A stretch of 13,934 nt of DNA from Promethearchaeota archaeon. GTDB lineage: Archaea; Asgardarchaeota; Lokiarchaeia; Sigyniarchaeales; SOKP01. The first letter of the stretch is position 1. Each line of letters begins with the position of its first letter. A program made the position numbers and the translations under genes. A model generated the notes under the pieces. That model had not been told where the DNA came from, made no database searches, and saw only the letters and a list, made by a program, of their open reading frames with translations. The stretch is taken from the NCBI GenBank assembly GCA_019057795.1, contig JAHLWS010000027.1:1-13934 (forward strand), in the 5' to 3' direction. Shown piece by piece: positions 3,935-13,831 of the stretch.

Positions 3935-4696
3935 TTATTCCTGATGTTTATTTATAATATCTTCTAACTCTTTGTCGGAAAGGAAGCCTTTGAGAGACAT
4001 AAGTTCTTTGATTCCCTCAATAACCTGGGGAGCACCTTTTGATTCTTCAATATAATCCTCTAAAGATTTTACTTTGAGTTCAATCGCCTCTATTTCTTTG
4101 TTTTTTGCTTCAAGTTCATTTTTAGCTTCTATTATTTGATTTTCCTTACTGTTAATCTGGTCTGTCAATTCGTTTTTCAAACTTTCAATCTCAATATATT
4201 TATCTGAAATTGTTTGCTGTAGATCTTTTTTAACGCCCTCGATCTCTCTTTCTTTTTGTTCGTAGTCTTCCTTTAGACTCCCGACTTGCGGTTCTAATTC
4301 CTCTAATTTCTTCGCGGTTGTATCTAATTTGCTTTCGATTTCTCTTATCTTTTCTTTATCAGTTTCTAAATTTTTCTCTAAGCTTGATTTGTTTGATTTC
4401 AAATTATCAATTTCTGTTTTAAGATTGATTTTTTCTTCTTTTATTGCGCCTATTTCGCTTTTAGTTGTAGATAATTCTTGATTTTTTTCAGTTAAACTTT
4501 TTTCTTTTTCTGATAATTTTTCCTTGGTATCATTTATTTCCTTAGATAACTTCTCTATTTTTTGTTGCCTTTGTTTTAGTTTCTGTTCTAAATCATCAAT
4601 TTTTGACCTAAGATCTAATAAAAAACGCCCATCTACGGGTTGCTTCTTATCAGGTTTTTCTTCTGCTTTGACCCAGTCTATTGTAATACTTCTCAC
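3935..4696 (-). CDS. Long coiled-coil protein, paralogue 1 (start is GTG 4696 or more likely ATT 4687)
   Basis: Heptad E/K/L/I-rich body. The N-cap TIDWVKAEEKPDKKQPVDGRFLLDLRSK and C-cap APQVIEGIKELMSLKGFLSDKELE are shared with the adjacent gene. Confidence 0.88.
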   Translation of the reverse strand: MRSITIDWVKAEEKPDKKQPVDGRFLLDLRSKIDDLEQKLKQRQQKIEKLSKEINDTKEKLSEKEKSLTEKNQELSTTKSEIGAIKEEKINLKTEIDNLKSNKSSLEKNLETDKEKIREIESKLDTTAKKLEELEPQVGSLKEDYEQKEREIEGVKKDLQQTISDKYIEIESLKNELTDQINSKENQIIEAKNELEAKNKEIEAIELKVKSLEDYIEESKGAPQVIEGIKELMSLKGFLSDKELEDIINKHQE

Positions 4697-4842
4697 GCCT
4701 TTTTTAATTTTTTTTATTGTATTATTTTATATTAATATTTTTATACTACAAGATATTTAATCTTTTCAAGTTAATATTTTAATCGTATAAATACAACTTT
4801 AAAATAGATTTCAAATTAAAATATTTATAAATTATCAAGGTA

Positions 4843-5505
4843 TTACTCAAATTCTTTAAATATAAGTTCGAGCTCCCTATCAGCAAGAAAGCCTTTGTGC
4901 CTCATTACCTCTCTTATTCGCTCCAAAATTATAGGTGCTGCTTTAACTTCTGCAAGCTGAGTTTCGATCGATTTTATTTTTTTAATCAATTCCTCTGTTT
5001 CTTCTCGATTCTCCTTAATTATTCCTTTTAGGATATCAATTTCGTTCTTTTTTTTTTCCATTTCGGTTTTATGGTTTTCTATCTCTTTATTTTTGAAATT
5101 TAAATTTTGTTCCATATCAGCTACTTTTTCTGACGAAAACCTCAACTCACTTTCTAATCTTACAATATTTTCATTTGCTCTTAACTCTTTTTTTTTAAGT
5201 TCTTCAAGTTCTGGCTTTAATCGTGTTAATTCTATATCAACATTTAATTTATCCTCAGAAACACTGTCTAAATTCTTTTTAGCTGATGAAAACTTTTCAC
5301 TAATTTTAACAAGGCTTTTTTCTCTACCAGTTAATTTATTTTGAGTTTCTTTTAAAATCTCTTTTGTATTTCTTAGATCTTCTTTGTACTTAACTAAGTC
5401 TCTTTCTAATTCATTCATTTTAGCGCGTAAATCTAATAAGACGCTACCTTCTACCTTCTGACCTTTTTGCGGCGCTAATTCAGCACGCTCCCAATCTATG
5501 CTAAC
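4843..5505 (-). CDS. Long coiled-coil protein, paralogue 2 (extended 29 codons beyond the track's ATG 5418; proposed GTT start, 220 aa)
   Basis: In-frame upstream translation (V)SIDWERAELAPQKGQKVEGSVLLDLRAK-MNELE aligns without gaps to the N-cap of paralogue 1. In-frame TAA at 5523-5521; AGGTG at 5517-5513. C-cap APIILERIREVMRHKGFLADRELE. Confidence 0.82.
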   Translation of the reverse strand, partial: VSIDWERAELAPQKGQKVEGSVLLDLRAKMNELERDLVKYKEDLRNTKEILKETQNKLTGREKSLVKISEKFSSAKKNLDSVSEDKLNVDIELTRLKPELEELKKKELRANENIVRLESELRFSSEKVADMEQNLNFKNKEIENHKTEMEKKKNEIDILKGIIKENREETEELIKKIKSIETQLAEVKAAPIILERIREVMRHKGFLADRELELIFKEFE

Positions 5506-5512
5506 TTCCGCC

Positions 5513-5517
5513 CACCT
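5513..5517 (-). promoter_or_regulatory. Shine-Dalgarno-like AGGTG preceding GTT
   Basis: Minus strand AAAAGGTG-GGCGGAA-GTT AGC ATA GAT TGG. Confidence 0.6.
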
Positions 5518-5752
5518 TTTTTATATTTAAAATGTAAATTTTTTTAAGTTTACTTATTCGTATCTTAAGTTTTTAATAAGATTTTTTCTTAATTATTGCG
5601 ACCTTATATATTGTAACTCTCTTTTTCTTTTATAAAACTTTACTATAAATATTAATTATTTATAAAGGTAATTTATCTAATCAATTGGTATTACGATCTA
5701 TTTGAAGTAATAAGGTTTAGAAGTTATTATATAAGTGTACCTGTGAATATTA

Positions 5753-6553
5753 ATGGTAAAAATTAACATTGGCTGTGCTGGTTGGGATTATAAGGACTGG
5801 GTGGATTCTTTTTATCCTAAATCGCTTGAGAAATATAACCGCTTGAAATATTACTCAAAATTTTTCGATTTAATCGAAATAAATACAACTTTTTACAATG
5901 TTCCTAAATATTCGACAGTAAAGAAGTGGAACGGTCGAGTACCAGAAAAATTTAAGTATGTAATAAAAGTATGGCAGAAAATTACTCACGATTTAAAAGT
6001 TCCAAATCTTGCTTCTTTAATTTCTCAATTTTTTTATCAATTATCACCGATACAAGAAAAAACCGTTGCTTATTTATTACAATTTCCACCGTGGTTTAAA
6101 TTTACGGAAAAACACCTCAAACAACTAAATTTTTTAACCAACGAGCTTCCTTCGGGAAATATGTATATCTTTGAATTTCGCGATAATTCGTGGTTCAAAA
6201 AAGAAATAATTACAGAGTTTATAGACGGTACTAAATTTATCTTAGGAACAACGTATAAACCAGGGTTAAAAGCCTACTATTTACCTAACCAGGATAGATA
6301 CTATATTCGCCTCATAGGTGACCGCGAATTAACGGTGTTTAGCCACATTCAGAGAAACCAAGAGGAAAATTTAAGCGATCTTATACAAAAGGTTAACTAT
6401 CTTGAGAAATCGCCTGATATTCGTGAAATCCTCATAATAGTCAATAATCACTTTATGGGGTTTGCCCCTAAATCCGTAAACTTGTTGAAAAAGAGATTTA
6501 ATCTCCCTTTTTATCAATTTAATCAACAAAAAAGATTATCAGATTACTTTTAA
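5753..6553 (+). CDS. DUF72 (YecE-like) domain protein with C-terminal PIP-box-like motif
   Basis: Family motifs IGCAGWDYKDW..FYP, F..IEINTTFY..P, K....ITH, LLQFPPWF, EFR..SW, YIRL.G, NNH..G.AP; ends QKRLSDYF. Confidence 0.93.
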   Translation: MVKINIGCAGWDYKDWVDSFYPKSLEKYNRLKYYSKFFDLIEINTTFYNVPKYSTVKKWNGRVPEKFKYVIKVWQKITHDLKVPNLASLISQFFYQLSPIQEKTVAYLLQFPPWFKFTEKHLKQLNFLTNELPSGNMYIFEFRDNSWFKKEIITEFIDGTKFILGTTYKPGLKAYYLPNQDRYYIRLIGDRELTVFSHIQRNQEENLSDLIQKVNYLEKSPDIREILIIVNNHFMGFAPKSVNLLKKRFNLPFYQFNQQKRLSDYF

Positions 6554-6858
6554 AGTGTATGTAAGGACGATTAAAATAAAATAAAAAATTTTAAAGTAAA
6601 TTCATGAATATACTTAAACCAAATCCCCAGAGTAGAATTCCTTGGACAAAAATTTTTGATGAATATATTTAAAGGTTCTCAATATTTCATCGTTCAGCTG
6701 AACAAAATAAATCCCTGAATTCGATAGTCTTAGAGGCTCTTATCTTCAAAGTTGAGAGAAATTTGCTCTAATCAGTTTCTTTTAAATACTCTCGATTTTT
6801 TAGGTTTTTTTTTTTTCTTAATCTTAAAAAAAATAGCCAACAAACTACTAATACTAAT

Positions 6859-7788
6859 CTATAAAACTTTCAAAGTAGAGTTCTTAGTAAAGACCAACTC
6901 TTTTTCGGAAGTATAGGAGTTTTCCTTGACGACTAAATTGGTTATCGAAACACTGTCCCCGTCGCTTACCAACTTCAAGCACTCGATCGCTTCCATGCCC
7001 CAGATTTTAACCCGTATCGCAAAAGACTCGACTTCTAAAAGTAAAGAGAGTAAGAACGATTTCTCGCCCGATTTTAGCTCCAACTCTTTAAAGTCTTCTA
7101 TTTTAACGGTTCCATTTACCGAACTGACGAACTTGTTTTGCAGGATAAGTTCTTTTAAGCTTTCTTTCGGAACCGTTTTATGACTTCTTTCGCTGGTTTG
7201 CTCGATATTTACTGACTTAAGCTTATCTCTCGTCCTCTGGCTAAGGTTTTTAGGGGAGAGAACTAACTTTCCTTTCCTTCCGAGGTGAACTTCGAGCTCA
7301 TCGGTTTTCCCAGTTTTAGAATAACCCCCAATTACGCGAACGAGTTCGTTTACCCGAAAATACTCGTTTTTCCCCGCCTTCGCGTGGTCGTCCCATAGGA
7401 CTATTTTAACGCTCTCGGTTGAGTCGCCTAACAAGAAAGAGAAAACCGCGCCCATAGAATCGTCTTTTCTCGTAAACTCTCGGCTTTGGAAAACTTCAAG
7501 AATTTTACCTAACAACACAATGTTGGTCATACCTTCTTTAAGTTCCGATGCATCGATCGTGAAATCGTCGTAGTCGATCTCTTCCTCTAGCGCTTCGTAC
7601 AAATGTGGATCGATGTCAGGCGAACGGAGTTGAATACCTTTTTCCTTGGCAATAACGAACAAAATCCCTTGCTTTGACATGAATCCACCGAACTCTTCGG
7701 CTTTGTTTTGAACTTGCTTTTCTAATTCGGCTTCCGAAAAACCAGAATCTAACAATTTTTGGTACAACTCTTCTACTGAATCGCTCAT
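6859..7788 (-). CDS. Replication protein A / ssDNA-binding OB-fold protein with DUF2240-like N-terminal domain
   Basis: N-terminal 'EFGGFMSKQGILFVIAKEKGI'; OB fold 'LKEGMTNIVLLGKIL...REFTRKD...G.V....LGDST..VKIVLWD'; second OB fold with 'IRVKIWG...GDSVSITNL.VKEN.Y..EKEL'. Confidence 0.88.
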   Translation of the reverse strand: MSDSVEELYQKLLDSGFSEAELEKQVQNKAEEFGGFMSKQGILFVIAKEKGIQLRSPDIDPHLYEALEEEIDYDDFTIDASELKEGMTNIVLLGKILEVFQSREFTRKDDSMGAVFSFLLGDSTESVKIVLWDDHAKAGKNEYFRVNELVRVIGGYSKTGKTDELEVHLGRKGKLVLSPKNLSQRTRDKLKSVNIEQTSERSHKTVPKESLKELILQNKFVSSVNGTVKIEDFKELELKSGEKSFLLSLLLEVESFAIRVKIWGMEAIECLKLVSDGDSVSITNLVVKENSYTSEKELVFTKNSTLKVL

Positions 7789-7943
7789 TATCCTGCTACA
7801 AACAATTTTTAACTATTAAGTAAGAAAATAGACTTCGAATATTTAAAGAAAAAATTTTTACATTTGAAAGTTATCGCGAAAAGTGAAGAGATATATATCT
7901 GATGCTTGCATTATTCAACATAAAAATCTCCAAGGTAAAGATC

Positions 7944-9047
7944 ATGTTTGAAAAGGTATTCACGTCAATCAATGACTTTTTTGATCCAAAATACGTTGAT
8001 ACCACTCCGATACCAAAACGAGAAAACCATCCTGATGAATTAAAGCAGAAAGTTAAAAAAACAATTCTGGACAGTGGAATGTTTGAATACGCCAAAAATT
8101 ATAAAAAAATCCCAATAGTTAAGACCATTCCTTCAGTAGTGAAGTTATTTGGCGATTTAACCAAAGACGAGGAATATCTCCAACACCTTCTAAGGAATCT
8201 GAAATTTTTGGCAGAAAATGAAGATTTTTGGATTAAGAAAAAACCATATTTCAATTATTTGTTGTTTTCAAGCGTTAATCAGCCGTTTAATTCGCTCGCA
8301 AAAAACTTCCTAAGTCTCACATTTTTCACGGAATATCTTAATTTCATCGAAGAAAAAATTAGCGTTAACGAAATAATTAGTTCTCTTAACTTCATTAACG
8401 AAGAGAAAGATAAAATGAAAGAAGTTTGGTTGAGAAAACCAATGAGTGAATTAATGAAGCTTCAAAAATGGATGTTTTTCGAAAAGGTCAAGAAAAGTTC
8501 TAAGGGCCAGTTTAGAATGTACTTTAACGATTGGGCGCTAAAGAATTCGCAAATTATCGAATACACCGTTAAAGCGATCTTTAAATTGTTCTTACAGTTG
8601 GATTTACTAAGCAAAGGCGTGAGGGAAGAAGATATCAAGGAGTTGCTTAAAACGAATTATACTTTTGGAAAAATGATACAATCCTTCGATCCGGATAGTA
8701 AATTAAAGAATGTAGCGAGGTTACGAATTTATCGAAACGCAGCATTTCATCCTGGGGTAGAGTTCGTTTACAACCAAAGAGAAAACACGAGAAAACTAGT
8801 ATTTGAAGATTATTACGGCAAAATTGAAGTGGATATCGAGGGATTTATCGCGGATTTTAGAAAATTAATGGTTTTCATCGCAACAATCAACTATCTGGTG
8901 GCAAATACGCTCTTTAAAGCGGAACACGATGGACAAAACGTATTTCAAGTGAACTATGAATACGCAAAGATTAACGGGATGAGAAAATTTTGGACTTGGC
9001 ATATGAGAGAAAGGGAAACAAATGGATATATTAAATATTTTCTTTAA
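7944..9047 (+). CDS. Hypothetical helical protein with HEPN-like Rx4H motif
   Basis: Long ORF (track start 7902); ATG 7944 is preferred because AGGTA lies 6 nt upstream. Contains 'LRIYRNAAFH' in the C-terminal third. Confidence 0.7.
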   Translation: MFEKVFTSINDFFDPKYVDTTPIPKRENHPDELKQKVKKTILDSGMFEYAKNYKKIPIVKTIPSVVKLFGDLTKDEEYLQHLLRNLKFLAENEDFWIKKKPYFNYLLFSSVNQPFNSLAKNFLSLTFFTEYLNFIEEKISVNEIISSLNFINEEKDKMKEVWLRKPMSELMKLQKWMFFEKVKKSSKGQFRMYFNDWALKNSQIIEYTVKAIFKLFLQLDLLSKGVREEDIKELLKTNYTFGKMIQSFDPDSKLKNVARLRIYRNAAFHPGVEFVYNQRENTRKLVFEDYYGKIEVDIEGFIADFRKLMVFIATINYLVANTLFKAEHDGQNVFQVNYEYAKINGMRKFWTWHMRERETNGYIKYFL

Positions 9048-9548
9048 GAGGAAATCTCTTACTCACGCGCTATTTATTGTATCTTTTGTCCATTTCAAAA
9101 ATGAAGAAATCAAATTTAACGATATCTTCGGTATATGTTTGCTGGAACTTTTTCATGATTGTCCGAAGTCTGCGTTTCTTTCGCGATATTTTCCACGAGA
9201 AAGTAGCTTAACTTTACAAGCTTACCGCTGTTATCTAACAAGCTCTCGCACCTAAAAAAATATTCCAAAATCTCTTTTTTTACTAAAAAGCTCTCGGAAA
9301 GACCGCTCTGGAGGCCTGTCCCTCGTACCAGAGCTACCGCTTGATTAACAGTTCCAGCCATTGATAGTTGTCCTTACAATTTTTTTTTATGATCAAAAGA
9401 AATAAACCGCTGTTAGTTTATAAAGAAAAATTAGTGGTTGGGTACAAAATTCAGTGATAATGAGTATTGTTAAGCGTTGTTATTTCCACCTTAATCTTTT
9501 ATGTAAAATAGTTTCGAATTTATAGTCAAAAATAAATCTAAGATGAAT

Positions 9549-10520
9549 TTATAAGAAAAAGCACTTTCGTTCAATATCTCGTAAGGAACTTGTAGGAAAG
9601 TAATAGAAATCTTCTTCTGCCTTTAGTAAATTTGATATCTCTTTATATCGTGTTCGTAGTGTTGCTTCAGTTATTTTTGCAATTTTTGATATTTCTTTCT
9701 GACTTCTCGACTCACCCTGTATTTTACATGCAACATATAACGCCCCTGATGCAAATCCTAAAGGACTTTTTCCTATCATCATTCCTTTCTTTTGTGCTAA
9801 TTCAATTATTTTTATTGCAAGTGATTGAACCTCACCTGAAAGTTTTAACTCTGAACAAAAATAAGAAATAAAATCTTTTGGAGATGATGGGTGTAATTTA
9901 ATATTAAGCTCATATTGGATTAACCTAATATATCGTGCAATTGTTTTCTTTTTAATTGTAATAATTCCATTAAAGGACTCTAGAGTTATAGGAATTTTAT
10001 TCGTTCTACACGCAATAAAAATGGAAGCAATAATTATTCCCTTTATTGTTCTTCCTTTTGAAAGTCCCTTTGAGAGCGTTTTTCTATAAATATATGCTGC
10101 GGATTCCTTTAAGGCCTTAGATAAACCAAGTTGAGAAGTAATTTGGTCTAACTCAATCATAGCAATATTTAAATTACGATCATTTGATTTAGTTGTTTTC
10201 GTTCTTTCTTGCCATTTTCTTAATCGATAAATGTCAGCTCTCATATTTGGAGTTAATGAAATTCCAAAAGCATCTTTGTTTTCTTTTGCAATTACCGTTG
10301 TCAACCCTTTATCAAAGTGATCTAATCTTGATCTCGGTCCAACCCTAGTCCGTTTTTTATATTCTTCTGGGGAAAACGAACGCCATTCCGCACGGGAATC
10401 AATGATATTTTGCTCTACAACAATACCACATTTCTTACAAATAGTTTCTCCACGGGTGCTATCTGTTATTAAAAATCCTTTTCCGCAATTAGGGCAAATT
10501 TCGTCTCTATTTTGAATCAT
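9549..10520 (-). CDS. tfb: Transcription initiation factor IIB (TFB) paralogue
   Basis: Zn ribbon CPNC...GETICKKCG, B-reader 'EWRSF...RTRVG', 'DKGLTT.I', 'RLRKWQ', two cyclin repeats (KGRTI; GKSP.G.A..ALY.AC; SQKEI......TEATLR.RYKEI). Confidence 0.96.
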   Translation of the reverse strand: MIQNRDEICPNCGKGFLITDSTRGETICKKCGIVVEQNIIDSRAEWRSFSPEEYKKRTRVGPRSRLDHFDKGLTTVIAKENKDAFGISLTPNMRADIYRLRKWQERTKTTKSNDRNLNIAMIELDQITSQLGLSKALKESAAYIYRKTLSKGLSKGRTIKGIIIASIFIACRTNKIPITLESFNGIITIKKKTIARYIRLIQYELNIKLHPSSPKDFISYFCSELKLSGEVQSLAIKIIELAQKKGMMIGKSPLGFASGALYVACKIQGESRSQKEISKIAKITEATLRTRYKEISNLLKAEEDFYYFPTSSLRDIERKCFFL

Positions 10521-10727
10521 CTTCTTAAGTACTAAGCTAAATCTAATACCATAATGTTTGAAAAACGAGACTTAAGAAATGGTTTATAATTTTGTATAAA
10601 AAGTCCGAAATTTTATAGATATATTATGTTTTTTATTTATTTTTGTTCTAAAGGTTATTTTTAATTTCCCTTCATGGAAATAAAATTTGTTCCAAAACAA
10701 AAAAAAGTTAGGTAATATAATTCTAAT

Positions 10728-11141
10728 CTAAATCTCTATATTGCAATCCCTTTTCCAGTCGCCCCAGAATTGTTCTAACTTCTGAAGCCCGATTTTGCTA
10801 ATCGAGGCTAAGTCGTGAAAGAATTCGACTAAAACTTTGTTGGATATCTTATTATATTTAGTAAAAACTTCAAATATCTGCTTATAGATCTTCAGATAAC
10901 GCCAAAATGTTTCTTTGTCAAGTTTTTCGTGTTTTGTTAGTTTTTGGATAGATTTACATTTAAATAAATTAACCCCTTTCAATGAATCCCAAGTATCAGA
11001 TTGAGGATTATAGGTAAAAAGAGAATCGATACTCCCATCAGAATTAATTTCACCAATTTCAATTATCCTTCTCGCACTGGAGTTAGAATCTTTTCTCATT
11101 AGGATTACTAAGTCTAAATCGTTAAAGCAAGAAGGATCAAT
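10728..11141 (-). pseudogene. C-terminal remnant of a CpaF/TadA/VirB11-like secretion or pilus ATPase
   Basis: In-frame 'IDPSCFNDLDLVILMRK...RRIIEIGEI....IDSLFTYNPQSDTW' resembles the post-Walker-B tail of these ATPases (DLVI...RRV.EI.E...LF.Y). No Walker A/B is present, and the frame closes at TAA 11183-11181. Confidence 0.6.
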
Positions 11142-11175
11142 TTTAACTAATTTTTGTAAAAAAAGAAAAAATAGA

Positions 11176-11559
11176 TTATTTTAAAGAATTATTAATTTCA
11201 TCCAAGAGAGAATCAAAATCTACTAATTTATTTTTTAACTCGTTAAGACTTAATTGAAAATCTCCTATAGCTTTTTTAACCTGCTCATTTAAATATTCTT
11301 CCCTTTTTAATAAATCTCTTAGCATTTTGTTTGAATTTTCTAAGTATGATTCGAAATCTTTTTGACGAAGAGCTTTTTTCATTAATAAATTTATATCTTC
11401 AGTTATTTTTTTCAATCTTTCTCCTTGATAGAGAATTCTATTCATCATAAATATTGATCGAACATCTAGGTACTCCCCAAATGTTTTATTATGGTTAATT
11501 ATTATATTTTTTAGCGTTTTCAAGGCATTGATTAGAGATAAAACAATTTCTTTATTCAT
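11176..11559 (-). CDS. Hypothetical alpha-helical/coiled-coil protein
   Basis: ORF from the track (11565). AGGAG lies 6 nt before the second ATG (11559), which is the more likely start. Amphipathic helical pattern. Confidence 0.75.
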   Translation of the reverse strand: MNKEIVLSLINALKTLKNIIINHNKTFGEYLDVRSIFMMNRILYQGERLKKITEDINLLMKKALRQKDFESYLENSNKMLRDLLKREEYLNEQVKKAIGDFQLSLNELKNKLVDFDSLLDEINNSLK

Positions 11560-11584
11560 TTTCATCTCCTTTTTCTTCTTATTT

Positions 11585-11755
11585 TTATAAAAAAGGTTTC
11601 CACTCTCCTATATTCATTATTTCTTCTTTATTTACAATCTGAACAGGATGACCAGAATGTAATGAATCGAATTTATCCAATTTTTCTTTATTGATATAAT
11701 TATCCTCAAGAATAGGTACATATTCATGACATTTGAAACATACTTTTAGCCTTAT
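11585..11755 (-). CDS. Small putative zinc-binding protein (CxxC...HxxH), 56 aa, proposed ATA start; absent from the ORF track
   Basis: (I)RLKVCFKCHEYVPILEDNYINKEKLDKFDSLHSGHPVQIVNKEEIMNIGEWKPFL*. SD-like GGAAGTGA at 11768-11761; in-frame TAA directly before ATA; stop lies about 25 nt before the next gene's start. Confidence 0.78.
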   Translation of the reverse strand: MRLKVCFKCHEYVPILEDNYINKEKLDKFDSLHSGHPVQIVNKEEIMNIGEWKPFL

Positions 11756-11760
11756 TTAAG

Positions 11761-11768
11761 TCACTTCC
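11761..11768 (-). promoter_or_regulatory. Shine-Dalgarno-like GGAAGTGA preceding ATA
   Basis: Minus strand GGAAGTGA-CTTAA-ATA; 7/8 match to GGAGGTGA. Confidence 0.7.
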
Positions 11769-11953
11769 TTTCCTTATGTTAACACCTGTTAAAAAAATCC
11801 TTTTTAAATCTATAACATATTTTTAAATAATTACTATTCTCCTTTCCCTTCTTCCTTTTCTTCCTCTTTCTTAAATATTTTTAATCACCTTTATTTCTAA
11901 TTTTTTTAATAAATTTGATAACTTCTTTTTTAATGATTCAAAAATTTTTTCTA

Positions 11954-13072
11954 TCAATTTTCAATTTCTTCAATAAATTTAAAGAATAAACCGATTCCTA
12001 CAATTTTAAATGTATCTTGCACATTAATATTGCGTAATGCAGAAATTTCAATAAAAGAACATCTAAGTTCTTCTGCTTTTTTTAAACCTTCTTCTTTTAA
12101 AACTTCTCTTTTATCCGCTAGATCAATTTTATTTCCAATAAGAACGAATGGAATATTTCCTAACTCCTTTCGAGCATCTTTAAACCAAAAATTAATCGCG
12201 TCATCAAATGTATCCCTCTTAGTAACGTCATAAACTATAAATGTACAATTAGCTCCTTTATAATAATTATGTCTAAAACGTTTGAAAAATTTTTGACCTG
12301 CTAAATCATATATTAGAAACTTTATTATATCATCTTTAAAACCTAGGACATAATATTGTTGTGTAGAAATTGATATTCCTAATGTGGAACGATAATCTAT
12401 GGTTTGTTCTTTTTTTAAAAAGCGATTCACTAAAGTAGTTTTTCCTACTGTTGCTGAGCCTAAAATAATTAATTTAAATTGTTTTTGTATTTTTTTGCAT
12501 CTTTTAATTTGATATTTTGTCGTTACACCCTCAATTATTTGATTTGATTCATTTATGGAATAATTATCTAATCCTAATGAAATATCATCATAAATACTTA
12601 AATCTGGAACGTCTAAAGAATTATATTTGAAATCAAAACTCTCTTCAAGCAATTGAGCGATTTTTTCACAAATTAAATAAGCTACTGGAAATAATTTATT
12701 TAAATTGGTCTCATAATTACAAACCAATAGTAAGATTGCTTCAGAACCCACTTCAAGATAAATTAATCTATGATCTAAAGTTTCAAAAGACCCACTTCCG
12801 AAATGTCCTATTTTATATTCTAACCTAATTTTATCCAGTAAATTTTCGACAAGAGTTGTGAGAGCTCCATATACATCATCAATTTCTTCTCTATCACTAC
12901 TTTTATTTTCTAACCTACCATATTTTGATATTAATAGTCCTTGATTCGAATATAAAAAGGCTATTTCTATATCCTCTCGTGATTCTGCAAAATTTTTTAG
13001 TAGAATTCGAATATTTTCTTCTTTCAACATAATTTTGGATAATTTAAGGATAAAATTAATCTTTATTTCCAT
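11954..13072 (-). CDS. Roadblock/LC7 (MglB-like) domain fused to a Rab-like small GTPase
   Basis: N-terminal roadblock pattern (DIEIAFLYSNQGLLIS...GALTT..E.LL.KI..EY..G.FG.G.FE...HRLIYLEVG..AILLLV). C-terminal G1 GSATVGKTT, G2 STLG, G3 DLAGQ, YYKGA, G4 NKID, G5 SAL. Alternative start at ATG 13030. Confidence 0.92.
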   Translation of the reverse strand: MEIKINFILKLSKIMLKEENIRILLKNFAESREDIEIAFLYSNQGLLISKYGRLENKSSDREEIDDVYGALTTLVENLLDKIRLEYKIGHFGSGSFETLDHRLIYLEVGSEAILLLVCNYETNLNKLFPVAYLICEKIAQLLEESFDFKYNSLDVPDLSIYDDISLGLDNYSINESNQIIEGVTTKYQIKRCKKIQKQFKLIILGSATVGKTTLVNRFLKKEQTIDYRSTLGISISTQQYYVLGFKDDIIKFLIYDLAGQKFFKRFRHNYYKGANCTFIVYDVTKRDTFDDAINFWFKDARKELGNIPFVLIGNKIDLADKREVLKEEGLKKAEELRCSFIEISALRNINVQDTFKIVGIGLFFKFIEEIEN

Positions 13073-13083
13073 TTCTTTTTTGT

Positions 13084-13659
13084 TTACCTTAATTTTTTTG
13101 ATTTTTTCTTTAAAATATTTTGTTTAGTTTTATTAAAATAATCTTCATGTTTCATTATGGATCTCGTTAAAAATTCAAAAATCTTATCGACATTTTCTCC
13201 AGTTTTAGAGGAGCATTCGAAATTCTTAACGATTTTATATTTTTTTGAGATTTTCTTAGCGTATTTTCTGGATATCATTCGTTCTTTATGGAGGTCTAAC
13301 TTTCCACCAACCATTAATAGAGGAACTTTCTTCTTATCGTTAGATAAACTGTCATTGAATAATGTTAACCATTTTTCTCCGTTATTTATACTGGAATAAT
13401 TAGTGATATCATACATAAAAATACCTCCTGATACGTCCCTCATAAAAATGGGGAAAATAAATTGAAATTGAGGATCACTTCTAAGATTCCAAATTTGAAG
13501 TATAATTTTAGAAGAATTTATTGTTAAATTTTTTATCGCAATATCTATGCATACTGGTGGCTTTGCTTTCTTTTTTTGAATACCTGCTTGGGGTAACGAA
13601 GTTTTTCCAACATTTCTATCTCCAAAAAGACATATTTTGTAGATTAACTCCTTGCTCGT
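13084..13659 (-). CDS. Atypical Rab/Ras-like small GTPase, 191 aa (extended 72 codons beyond the track's ATG 13443; proposed ACG start)
   Basis: In-frame upstream translation (T)SKELIYKICLFGDRNVGKTSL...CIDIAIKNLTINSSKIILQIWNLRSDPQFQFIFPIF-MRDVSGGIFMYDIT supplies the missing beta1/P-loop half. G4 GGKLD, G5 ECSSK. AGGTG at 13670-13666; in-frame TAA at 13665-13663. Confidence 0.87.
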   Translation of the reverse strand, partial: TSKELIYKICLFGDRNVGKTSLPQAGIQKKKAKPPVCIDIAIKNLTINSSKIILQIWNLRSDPQFQFIFPIFMRDVSGGIFMYDITNYSSINNGEKWLTLFNDSLSNDKKKVPLLMVGGKLDLHKERMISRKYAKKISKKYKIVKNFECSSKTGENVDKIFEFLTRSIMKHEDYFNKTKQNILKKKSKKLR

Positions 13660-13665
13660 TTCTTA

Positions 13666-13670
13666 CACCT
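13666..13670 (-). promoter_or_regulatory. Shine-Dalgarno-like AGGTG preceding ACG
   Basis: Minus strand AAAAGGTG-TAAGAA-ACG matches the archaeal anti-SD complement GGAGGTGA, with the same 6-nt spacing as the ATG genes at 11559 and 7944. Confidence 0.7.
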
Positions 13671-13798
13671 TTTGTTTTGAGTGCATTCAGTAATTTAGCT
13701 AAAATTTATTATTCGTATAGAGCTTTCTATAAACTCATCGATATAATAATCATACCGACAAAATTTTTAATTTTTAATTTTTAATTGAGGAAATTTAT

Positions 13799-13831
13799 AT
13801 TGTTCCTTATAAAACTCCTTATAAGGACAAT
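13799..13831. repeat. Imperfect inverted repeat containing a perfect 12-bp palindrome and a 9-bp direct repeat
   Basis: ATTGTTCCTTATAA-AACTCC-TTATAAGGACAAT; palindrome TCCTTATAAGGA at 13816-13827; TCCTTATAA at 13804 and 13816. Confidence 0.6.

Follow-up and report, generated by a model that had tools for sequence, protein, structure and literature searches.

The window analysed here is a stretch of 13,934 nucleotides (nt) on contig C27 of the Lokiarchaeia genome G000 (4.95 Mb, 31% GC). All four of its genes with proposed non-canonical start codons lie on the minus strand: a Rab-like small GTPase gene (ACG), a small zinc-finger-like gene (ATA) and two tandem coiled-coil paralogues, coiled-coil 2 (GTT) and coiled-coil 1 (ATT) (Table 1). 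Comparison of orthologous start positions, together with a genome-wide scan, makes it very probable that these genes are translated from near-cognate codons behind a Shine-Dalgarno (SD) motif, and that this reflects a habit of the genome and of its relatives within Lokiarchaeia rather than a defect of the locus. Near-cognate starts are known in prokaryotes as a kind; the real departure here is that they recur, are conserved across species and occur genome-wide in a Lokiarchaeon. Throughout, ATG, GTG and TTG are referred to as canonical starts, and ATH stands for ATT, ATA or ATC.

The four sites had been proposed in an initial annotation of the window, and their coordinates and motifs proved correct when the minus strand was read again. 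That annotation also held that SD-positioned near-cognate initiation recurs in this organism, that the spacing is that of ATG starts and that N-termini may be mis-annotated as a consequence. These claims now appear well founded, given the orthologue series, the genome-wide in-frame excess, the Pfam coverage of N-termini and the truncated public gene calls presented below. The relaxed codon checking and the possible tuning of expression that it also inferred are hypothetical, and caveats apply to the GTT of coiled-coil 2, the ACG of the Rab-like gene and the start of coiled-coil 1.

Proposed start sites in the window and in orthologues

The Rab-like, zinc-finger and coiled-coil 2 genes share one arrangement, in which no in-frame canonical codon precedes the conserved N-terminus, an in-frame stop lies just upstream and a GGTG-type SD stands 6-7 nt away. 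All ORFs (open reading frames) of the window genes at issue are intact. The stop-to-stop ORF of the Rab-like gene (13662..13084), with TAA 13665-13663 upstream in frame, opens with GAA ACG; the GTG within its SD is in frame, but the TAA comes directly after it, and the first canonical start (ATG 13443) lies 72 codons on, past the P-loop. At the zinc-finger gene, TAA 11758-11756 stands in frame between SD and ATA, directly before the latter, and the only canonical codon of the ORF is a TTG behind the CxxC motif. In coiled-coil 2 the SD has its GTG in another frame, and ATG 5418, the first canonical start, lies 29 codons downstream of GTT. A programmed +1 frameshift from this GTG was considered and rejected: G000 and G005, the closest species, do not share the putative shift site, and the frame of the GTG reaches TAG after 4 codons.

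Table 1. Positions of the genes with proposed near-cognate starts and of their Shine-Dalgarno (SD) motifs (window coordinates unless a contig is named)
Feature	Coordinates	Strand	Remarks
SD AGGTG, Rab-like gene	13666..13670	-	sequence; 6 nt before ACG
Rab/Ras-like small GTPase gene	13084..13659	-	putative start ACG 13659-13657; 191 codons + stop; Pfam Ras
SD GGAAGTGA, zinc-finger gene	11761..11768	-	one mismatch to GGAGGTGA; 6 nt before ATA
Small CxxC...HxxH zinc-finger-like gene	11585..11755	-	putative start ATA 11755-11753; 56 codons; stop 11587-11585
SD AGGTG, coiled-coil 2	5513..5517	-	GGTG 5516-5513; 7 nt before GTT
Coiled-coil protein 2 gene	4843..5505	-	putative start GTT 5505-5503; 220 codons + stop
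GGCGTGA, degraded SD of coiled-coil 1	4693..4699	-	GGTGTGA or GGTGTAA in relatives
Coiled-coil protein 1 gene (tandem paralogue)	3935..4687	-	putative start ATT 4687-4685; alternative start GTG 4696
aIF1 (SUI1) gene	G000 C70:199626-199979 (locus L082 1444..1800)	-	outside the window; putative ATT start

Start codons at syntenic or homologous positions were compared across species of the genus and class (G-numbered genomes). At the same SD-defined codon ATG, TTG or GTG was found in some genomes and ATT, ATA, GTT or ACG in others, and for each of the four genes the codon is canonical in several species. The Rab-like gene has ATG in G005 and G052, ATT in G045 and ACG in the window; its AGGTG is identical in both ATG-starting species, and the ATG of G005 occupies the exact position of the ACG, between flanks that are 98% identical. 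The zinc-finger gene has ATA right after an in-frame stop in 10 species of the genus (among the ATA-bearing orthologues are those of G042, G011, G044, G047, G045, G018, G010, G019 and G053), ATT in one (G017) and ATG in three (G005, G043 and G023). The upstream GGAAGTGA is likewise kept in 10 species of the genus, and in G010 the entire ORF is without ATG, GTG or TTG. A distant second CxxC...HxxH paralogue with a longer N-terminus and an ATG start lies just downstream at the G005 locus (L002 553..804).

The coiled-coil genes, with about 30 loci, constitute a natural allelic series at the start codon. Within the same AGG TGG GCG GAA context, the coiled-coil 2 start is GTT in G000 and six further species, ATT in 11, ATA in 2 and ATG in G015, and it is TTG in 6 more-distant orthologues, where the flanking sequence is different. 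In about 26 coiled-coil 2 orthologues GGTG precedes the start position by 6-8 nt, at many loci of the paralogues a stop comes no more than one or two codons before the start, and the first canonical codon of coiled-coil 2 orthologues is often more than 100 codons downstream. The tandem genes (window 3935-5520, minus strand) have in common two conserved elements, the N-terminal motif I-D/N-W...VEGR.LLDLR and a block at the C-terminus, and the pair is retained together across the genus. Against Pfam, no family above cut-off was found for these proteins, only generic coiled-coil matches.

An assembly or sequencing error, with ATG or GTG as the real codons, is scarcely credible in view of these series. 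Single-base errors do happen in metagenome-assembled genomes (MAGs), but the same non-canonical codons occur in many species from different studies, and the genome-wide excess reported in the following section is confined to codons that lie in frame at the SD spacing. In addition, Logan contigs, which assemble the probable source run independently, show zero differences from the window over 4500-13823. Contigs from three other independent runs (X3, X7 and X10) represent mostly related species.

Near-cognate codons across the genome

The 3' end of the 16S rRNA reads GGATCACCTCCT, which is canonical, and the SD consensus at unambiguous ATG starts is GGTGAT at positions -11..-6. The spacing of 6-7 nt at the four window sites equals this genome-wide optimum. 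A review describes SD sequences as rare in Lokiarchaea.

A total of 4128 long ORFs were scanned for in-frame codons located 7 nt after GGTG within the stretch before the first canonical codon. Of the 168 codons recovered in frame, 60 were canonical, 26 ATT, 19 ATA and 6 ATC, so that ATH accounts for 51 of the 168, compared with 0-3 occurrences per codon in out-of-frame controls. Under a broader SD definition ATT, ATA, CTG and ACG were enriched 1.7- to 5.8-fold over off-spacing controls (ACG 4.2-fold). Among SD-led starts ATH is about as frequent as TTG and commoner than GTG.

A strict set was limited to cases whose upstream stop is no more than 5 codons away and whose first canonical codon comes 15 or more codons further on. 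Its 67 cases include 22 ATT, 14 ATA, 5 ACG, 4 ATC, 3 CTG and one GTT, the latter being the window gene; for the abundant codons AAA and AAT the counts were 2 of 55 and 3 of 23 occurrences, respectively. The near-cognate members amount to 49 ORFs, or about 1.2% of long ORFs, a lower bound that covers SD-led genes only. The accepted codons are nearly all one-base neighbours of ATG, and the narrowness of the set (ATH, ACG, CTG) makes it clear that codon-anticodon checking still operates. Three other genomes of the class were sampled over 275-400 kb; there, ATT or ATA made up 2 of 3 (G038), 2 of 5 (G113) and 4 of 6 (G067) strict matches, which fits a class-wide habit, in numbers too small to claim one.

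Protein domains back many of these starts. In such strict-type cases the Pfam domain begins at most 22 residues from the proposed start, a long way ahead of the first canonical codon; among them are altronate dehydratase, a TFB paralogue (Zn ribbon), JAB, an IF-2B family protein, folE2, a PFL-like enzyme, two hydrolases, a DAO oxidoreductase (CTG) and an M24 peptidase (ACG). The M24 peptidase, in which Creatinase_N begins at residue 10, constitutes a clean independent ACG example; the AOR gene, also considered as such, was dropped as ambiguous because an in-frame ATA adjoins its ACG.

These domain boundaries bear on the view that translation starts at the first downstream ATG, GTG or TTG and that the upstream in-frame stretch is an untranslated leader. 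Gene callers assume as much, and about 14 of 95 loose candidates, with a canonical codon within 3 codons, are probably true canonical starts. As a general account it is nevertheless very improbable, since not only the Pfam domains but also the P-loop of the Rab-like protein, the CxxC motif, the N-terminal coiled-coil motif (the best-conserved part of those proteins, which a downstream start would remove) and the Zn knuckle of the initiation factor aIF1 precede the first canonical codon. The zinc-finger copy of G010 and the coiled-coil 2 orthologues with more than 100 codons to the first canonical one argue in the same direction.

When an SD of the form GGTGA lies at 7-nt spacing, its TGA is always in frame with the start, and 29 of the 95 candidates have the proposed start at ORF codon index 2. 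Most SD-led starts are therefore preceded by a stop two codons upstream. This geometry speaks to recoding, that is, initiation at the GTG inside the SD followed by stop read-through or a frameshift, or else editing of the RNA to AUG. At 6-nt spacing the GTG is indeed in frame (GTG TAA GAA ACG in the Rab-like gene, GTG ACT TAA ATA in the zinc-finger gene), and ACG-to-AUG start editing occurs in plant organelles. At the commonest spacing (7 nt), however, it is the TGA that falls in frame, as a stop, and not the GTG, no slippery site is common to G000 and G005, and a GTG paired with the 16S tail cannot also be SD-positioned in the P site. No single type of editing turns ACG, AUA, AUU and GUU into AUG. 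Recoding in any of these forms is highly improbable. The organellar precedent resembles the Rab-like gene, with a genomic ACG at the start position, but most cases here are ATT or ATA; these are not convertible to AUG by C-to-U editing.

Selection, start loss and leaderless initiation

Several observations weigh against SD-positioned near-cognate initiation or against particular cases of it. Initiation at these codons is inferred from sequence, as are methionine as first residue and any regulatory role, and no RNA run was found to contain the stretch. SD complementarity before ATH is not significantly longer than before ATG (5.55-5.70 vs 5.50; p=0.06-0.18), and these lengths leave unsupported the idea that extra-strong SDs compensate for weak start codons. 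The regions upstream are AT-rich and carry TATA-like boxes. In coiled-coil 1 a canonical in-frame GTG (4696-4694) stands three codons upstream of the ATT. ACG at the Rab-like start is confined to this species, and GTT, two positions off AUG, occurs once only in the strict set; these two are the weakest individual cases.

For coiled-coil 1, the initial annotation was right that the ATT is homologous to the paralogue's GTT, a position that holds GTT, ATT, ATG or TTG in coiled-coil 2 and TTG or GTG in distant coiled-coil 1 orthologues. Owing to the in-frame GTG, a non-canonical start is not forced in this genome. Many relatives have GGT GTA in the SD, hence no GTG, and G049 carries an in-frame TGA between the SD motif and the ATT; in such orthologues no canonical start precedes the ATT. 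ATT is on these grounds regarded as the ancestral coiled-coil 1 start of that clade.

Estimates of selection separate the genes. The ratio of nonsynonymous to synonymous substitution rates (dN/dS) is 0.1-0.3 for the zinc-finger gene, which denotes purifying selection, and 0.2-0.35 for the coiled-coil 2 N-terminus in four of five pairs, so that neither is a pseudogene. For the Rab-like gene close pairs, with few substitutions, gave about 0.5-1.0; the ratio is the same between the two ATG-bearing species.

The Rab-like protein is itself unusual. Pfam Ras (PF00071) matches its stop-to-stop ORF with E=1e-27 (profile 1-161 on residues 9-170), and the G1 P-loop GxxxxGK[ST] is present near the N-terminus as GDRNVGKT. 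The G3 (DxxGQ) and G4 (NKxD) motifs fail: G3 reads WNLRSDPQ, with NLRS in place of DxxG, and G4 reads GGKLD. These degenerate forms are kept in G005, G052 and G045. From its sequence, the protein may resemble or derive from the Ras-family fold without being a regular GTPase, and could represent a pseudo-GTPase or a protein with altered nucleotide handling.

It is conceivable that such a weakly constrained gene has recently lost its start. More broadly, the ACG and GTT genes might both be recently silenced or decaying, leaving only the ATA and ATT cases as real. The uniqueness of ACG to G000 next to ATG in its closest relatives, the Rab-like dN/dS and degenerate G3 and G4, and the isolation of GTT in the strict set speak for this explanation. 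On the other side, the Rab-like ORF has remained intact at 31% GC and its odd motifs are kept as far as a 61%-identical orthologue that starts with ATT; ACG is enriched at SD-defined starts, with 5 strict cases including the M24 peptidase; and at least 7 species or samples retain GTT, with N-terminal codons under constraint. Start loss of this kind is on balance unlikely.

The upstream composition also raises the possibility that the transcripts are leaderless, with their 5' ends at or close to the near-cognate codon, the conserved GGTG having some other role. Leaderless mRNAs are common in archaea (PMC12993045). TATA-like boxes do precede the codon by about 20-30 nt, as they do upstream of coiled-coil 2, but the GGTG stands at a fixed 6-8 nt that matches both the spacing of canonical ATG starts and the 16S tail. 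Leaderless initiation, moreover, depends strongly on a 5'-terminal AUG. We regard this explanation as improbable.

Initiation machinery, known systems and annotation

In the proposed mechanism, a GGUG-type SD located 6-8 nt upstream would pair with the canonical 16S 3' end and set the near-cognate codon in the P site, where two of its three bases would pair with the CAU anticodon of the initiator tRNA. The codons so used would be AUA, AUU and ACG, plus GUU in one family.

The gene of aIF1 probably has the same type of start. In G000 an in-frame TGA is followed by three codons and then ATT, with no ATG, GTG or TTG before the Zn knuckle, and across the class 42 of 50 genomes likewise lack a canonical codon there. 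ATT or ATC after an in-frame stop is conserved through the whole family, the stop of G113 being only one codon upstream; in some other families of the class the start is TTG, ATG or ATA. In an alignment to the solved M. jannaschii aIF1, the methionine of the latter falls two residues after the G000 ATT, which fits the proposed start. Most likely, judging from these comparisons, the aIF1 of G000 starts at ATT.

ARAGORN reported only 14-18 tRNAs and no tRNA-Met in the genome, missing most of its tRNAs. By means of an anticodon-arm signature, an initiator-tRNA-like gene was located on G000 C70 at about 174350-174440 (+), with an A1 start, a GGG/CCC anticodon stem and a canonical anticodon arm. 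Its sequence departs from that of a tRNA after the start of the T-loop, which suggests an intron or a split 3' half.

Starts of this kind are best documented in bacteria. E. coli infC and pcnB start with AUU, and NCBI table 11 lists ATT, ATC, ATA and CTG as initiators; to our knowledge, GUU is not a recognised one. As here, bacterial near-cognate starts are found on SD-led mRNAs, one base off AUG, and in infC, which encodes IF3, as in aIF1 the gene of a fidelity factor itself has a weak start codon. The differences are of scale and of factor: bacteria have a handful of such starts per genome, compared with at least about 1.2% of long ORFs here; aIF1 belongs to the SUI1 family and is unrelated to IF3; and an infC-like autoregulation of aIF1 would be hypothetical. 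Eukaryotic initiation policed by eIF1 resembles the present case in the SUI1/eIF1 family, in the tolerance of CUG, ACG, AUU, AUA and AUC, and in a factor gene with a weak start. Eukaryotes, however, position the start by scanning and Kozak context and not by SD pairing, and their eIF1 gene is weak through poor context, whereas that of aIF1, as read from its sequence, would be weak in the codon itself.

A further reading, which we put forward as no more than tentative and rather doubtful, is that Lokiarchaeia operate at a lineage-wide lowered stringency in which AUU, AUA, AUC, ACG, CUG and exceptionally GUU are interchangeable starts, at a level set by the AUU-starting aIF1. If true, Lokiarchaeia would have an analogue of the infC loop of bacteria and of the autoregulation of eIF1 in eukaryotes, and non-AUG initiation with eIF1-based control would predate the origin of eukaryotes. 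In any event, a clade sister to eukaryotes would combine a eukaryote-like near-cognate spectrum, and an aIF1 gene that is itself on a weak codon, with positioning by SD pairing. How start-codon stringency and eIF1-type autoregulation evolved thereby becomes experimentally testable in cultured Lokiarchaeia.

In the literature we found no systematic report of near-cognate starts for Asgard archaea, only a single remark on AtubA: the methods section on the Kari AtubA, from an Asgard MAG, mentions one 'rare ATT start codon' (PMC13394414, Sci Adv 2026). As in the genes described here, the deposited Asgard protein was truncated, and an ATT behind a plausible ribosome-binding site restores the conserved first beta strand. 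AtubA is one gene in another Asgard lineage; in the present genome the phenomenon is recurrent, conserved across species and genome-wide.

Public annotation shows the consequences. The same ATT or GTT stands in an NCBI MAG and in a JGI metagenome contig derived from other samples. Public gene calls of coiled-coil 2 are truncated, and those on these two records start at an internal GTG or TTG, dropping 83-88 open codons. Since near-cognate starts would affect at least 1% of genes, standard gene finders limited to ATG, GTG and TTG cut off N-termini, truncating or missing at least 1% of proteins in these Asgard genomes. Small GTPases, the TFB paralogue, aIF1 and metabolic enzymes are among the genes affected, and the truncation would touch structure prediction, domain inventories of eukaryotic signature proteins and phylogenies.

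Two further features of the window were recorded. Between the Rab-like and zinc-finger genes lies a Roadblock-plus-Ras fusion gene (11954-13123, minus strand), which is missing from the syntenic G005 locus, where the two genes abut, and junctions on contigs from other runs bypass it; this is apparently a case of insertion/deletion polymorphism between close relatives. The end of the contig (13793-13934) carries a repeat that matches G000 C52:96054-96194 at 92%, and reads are marked cut there.

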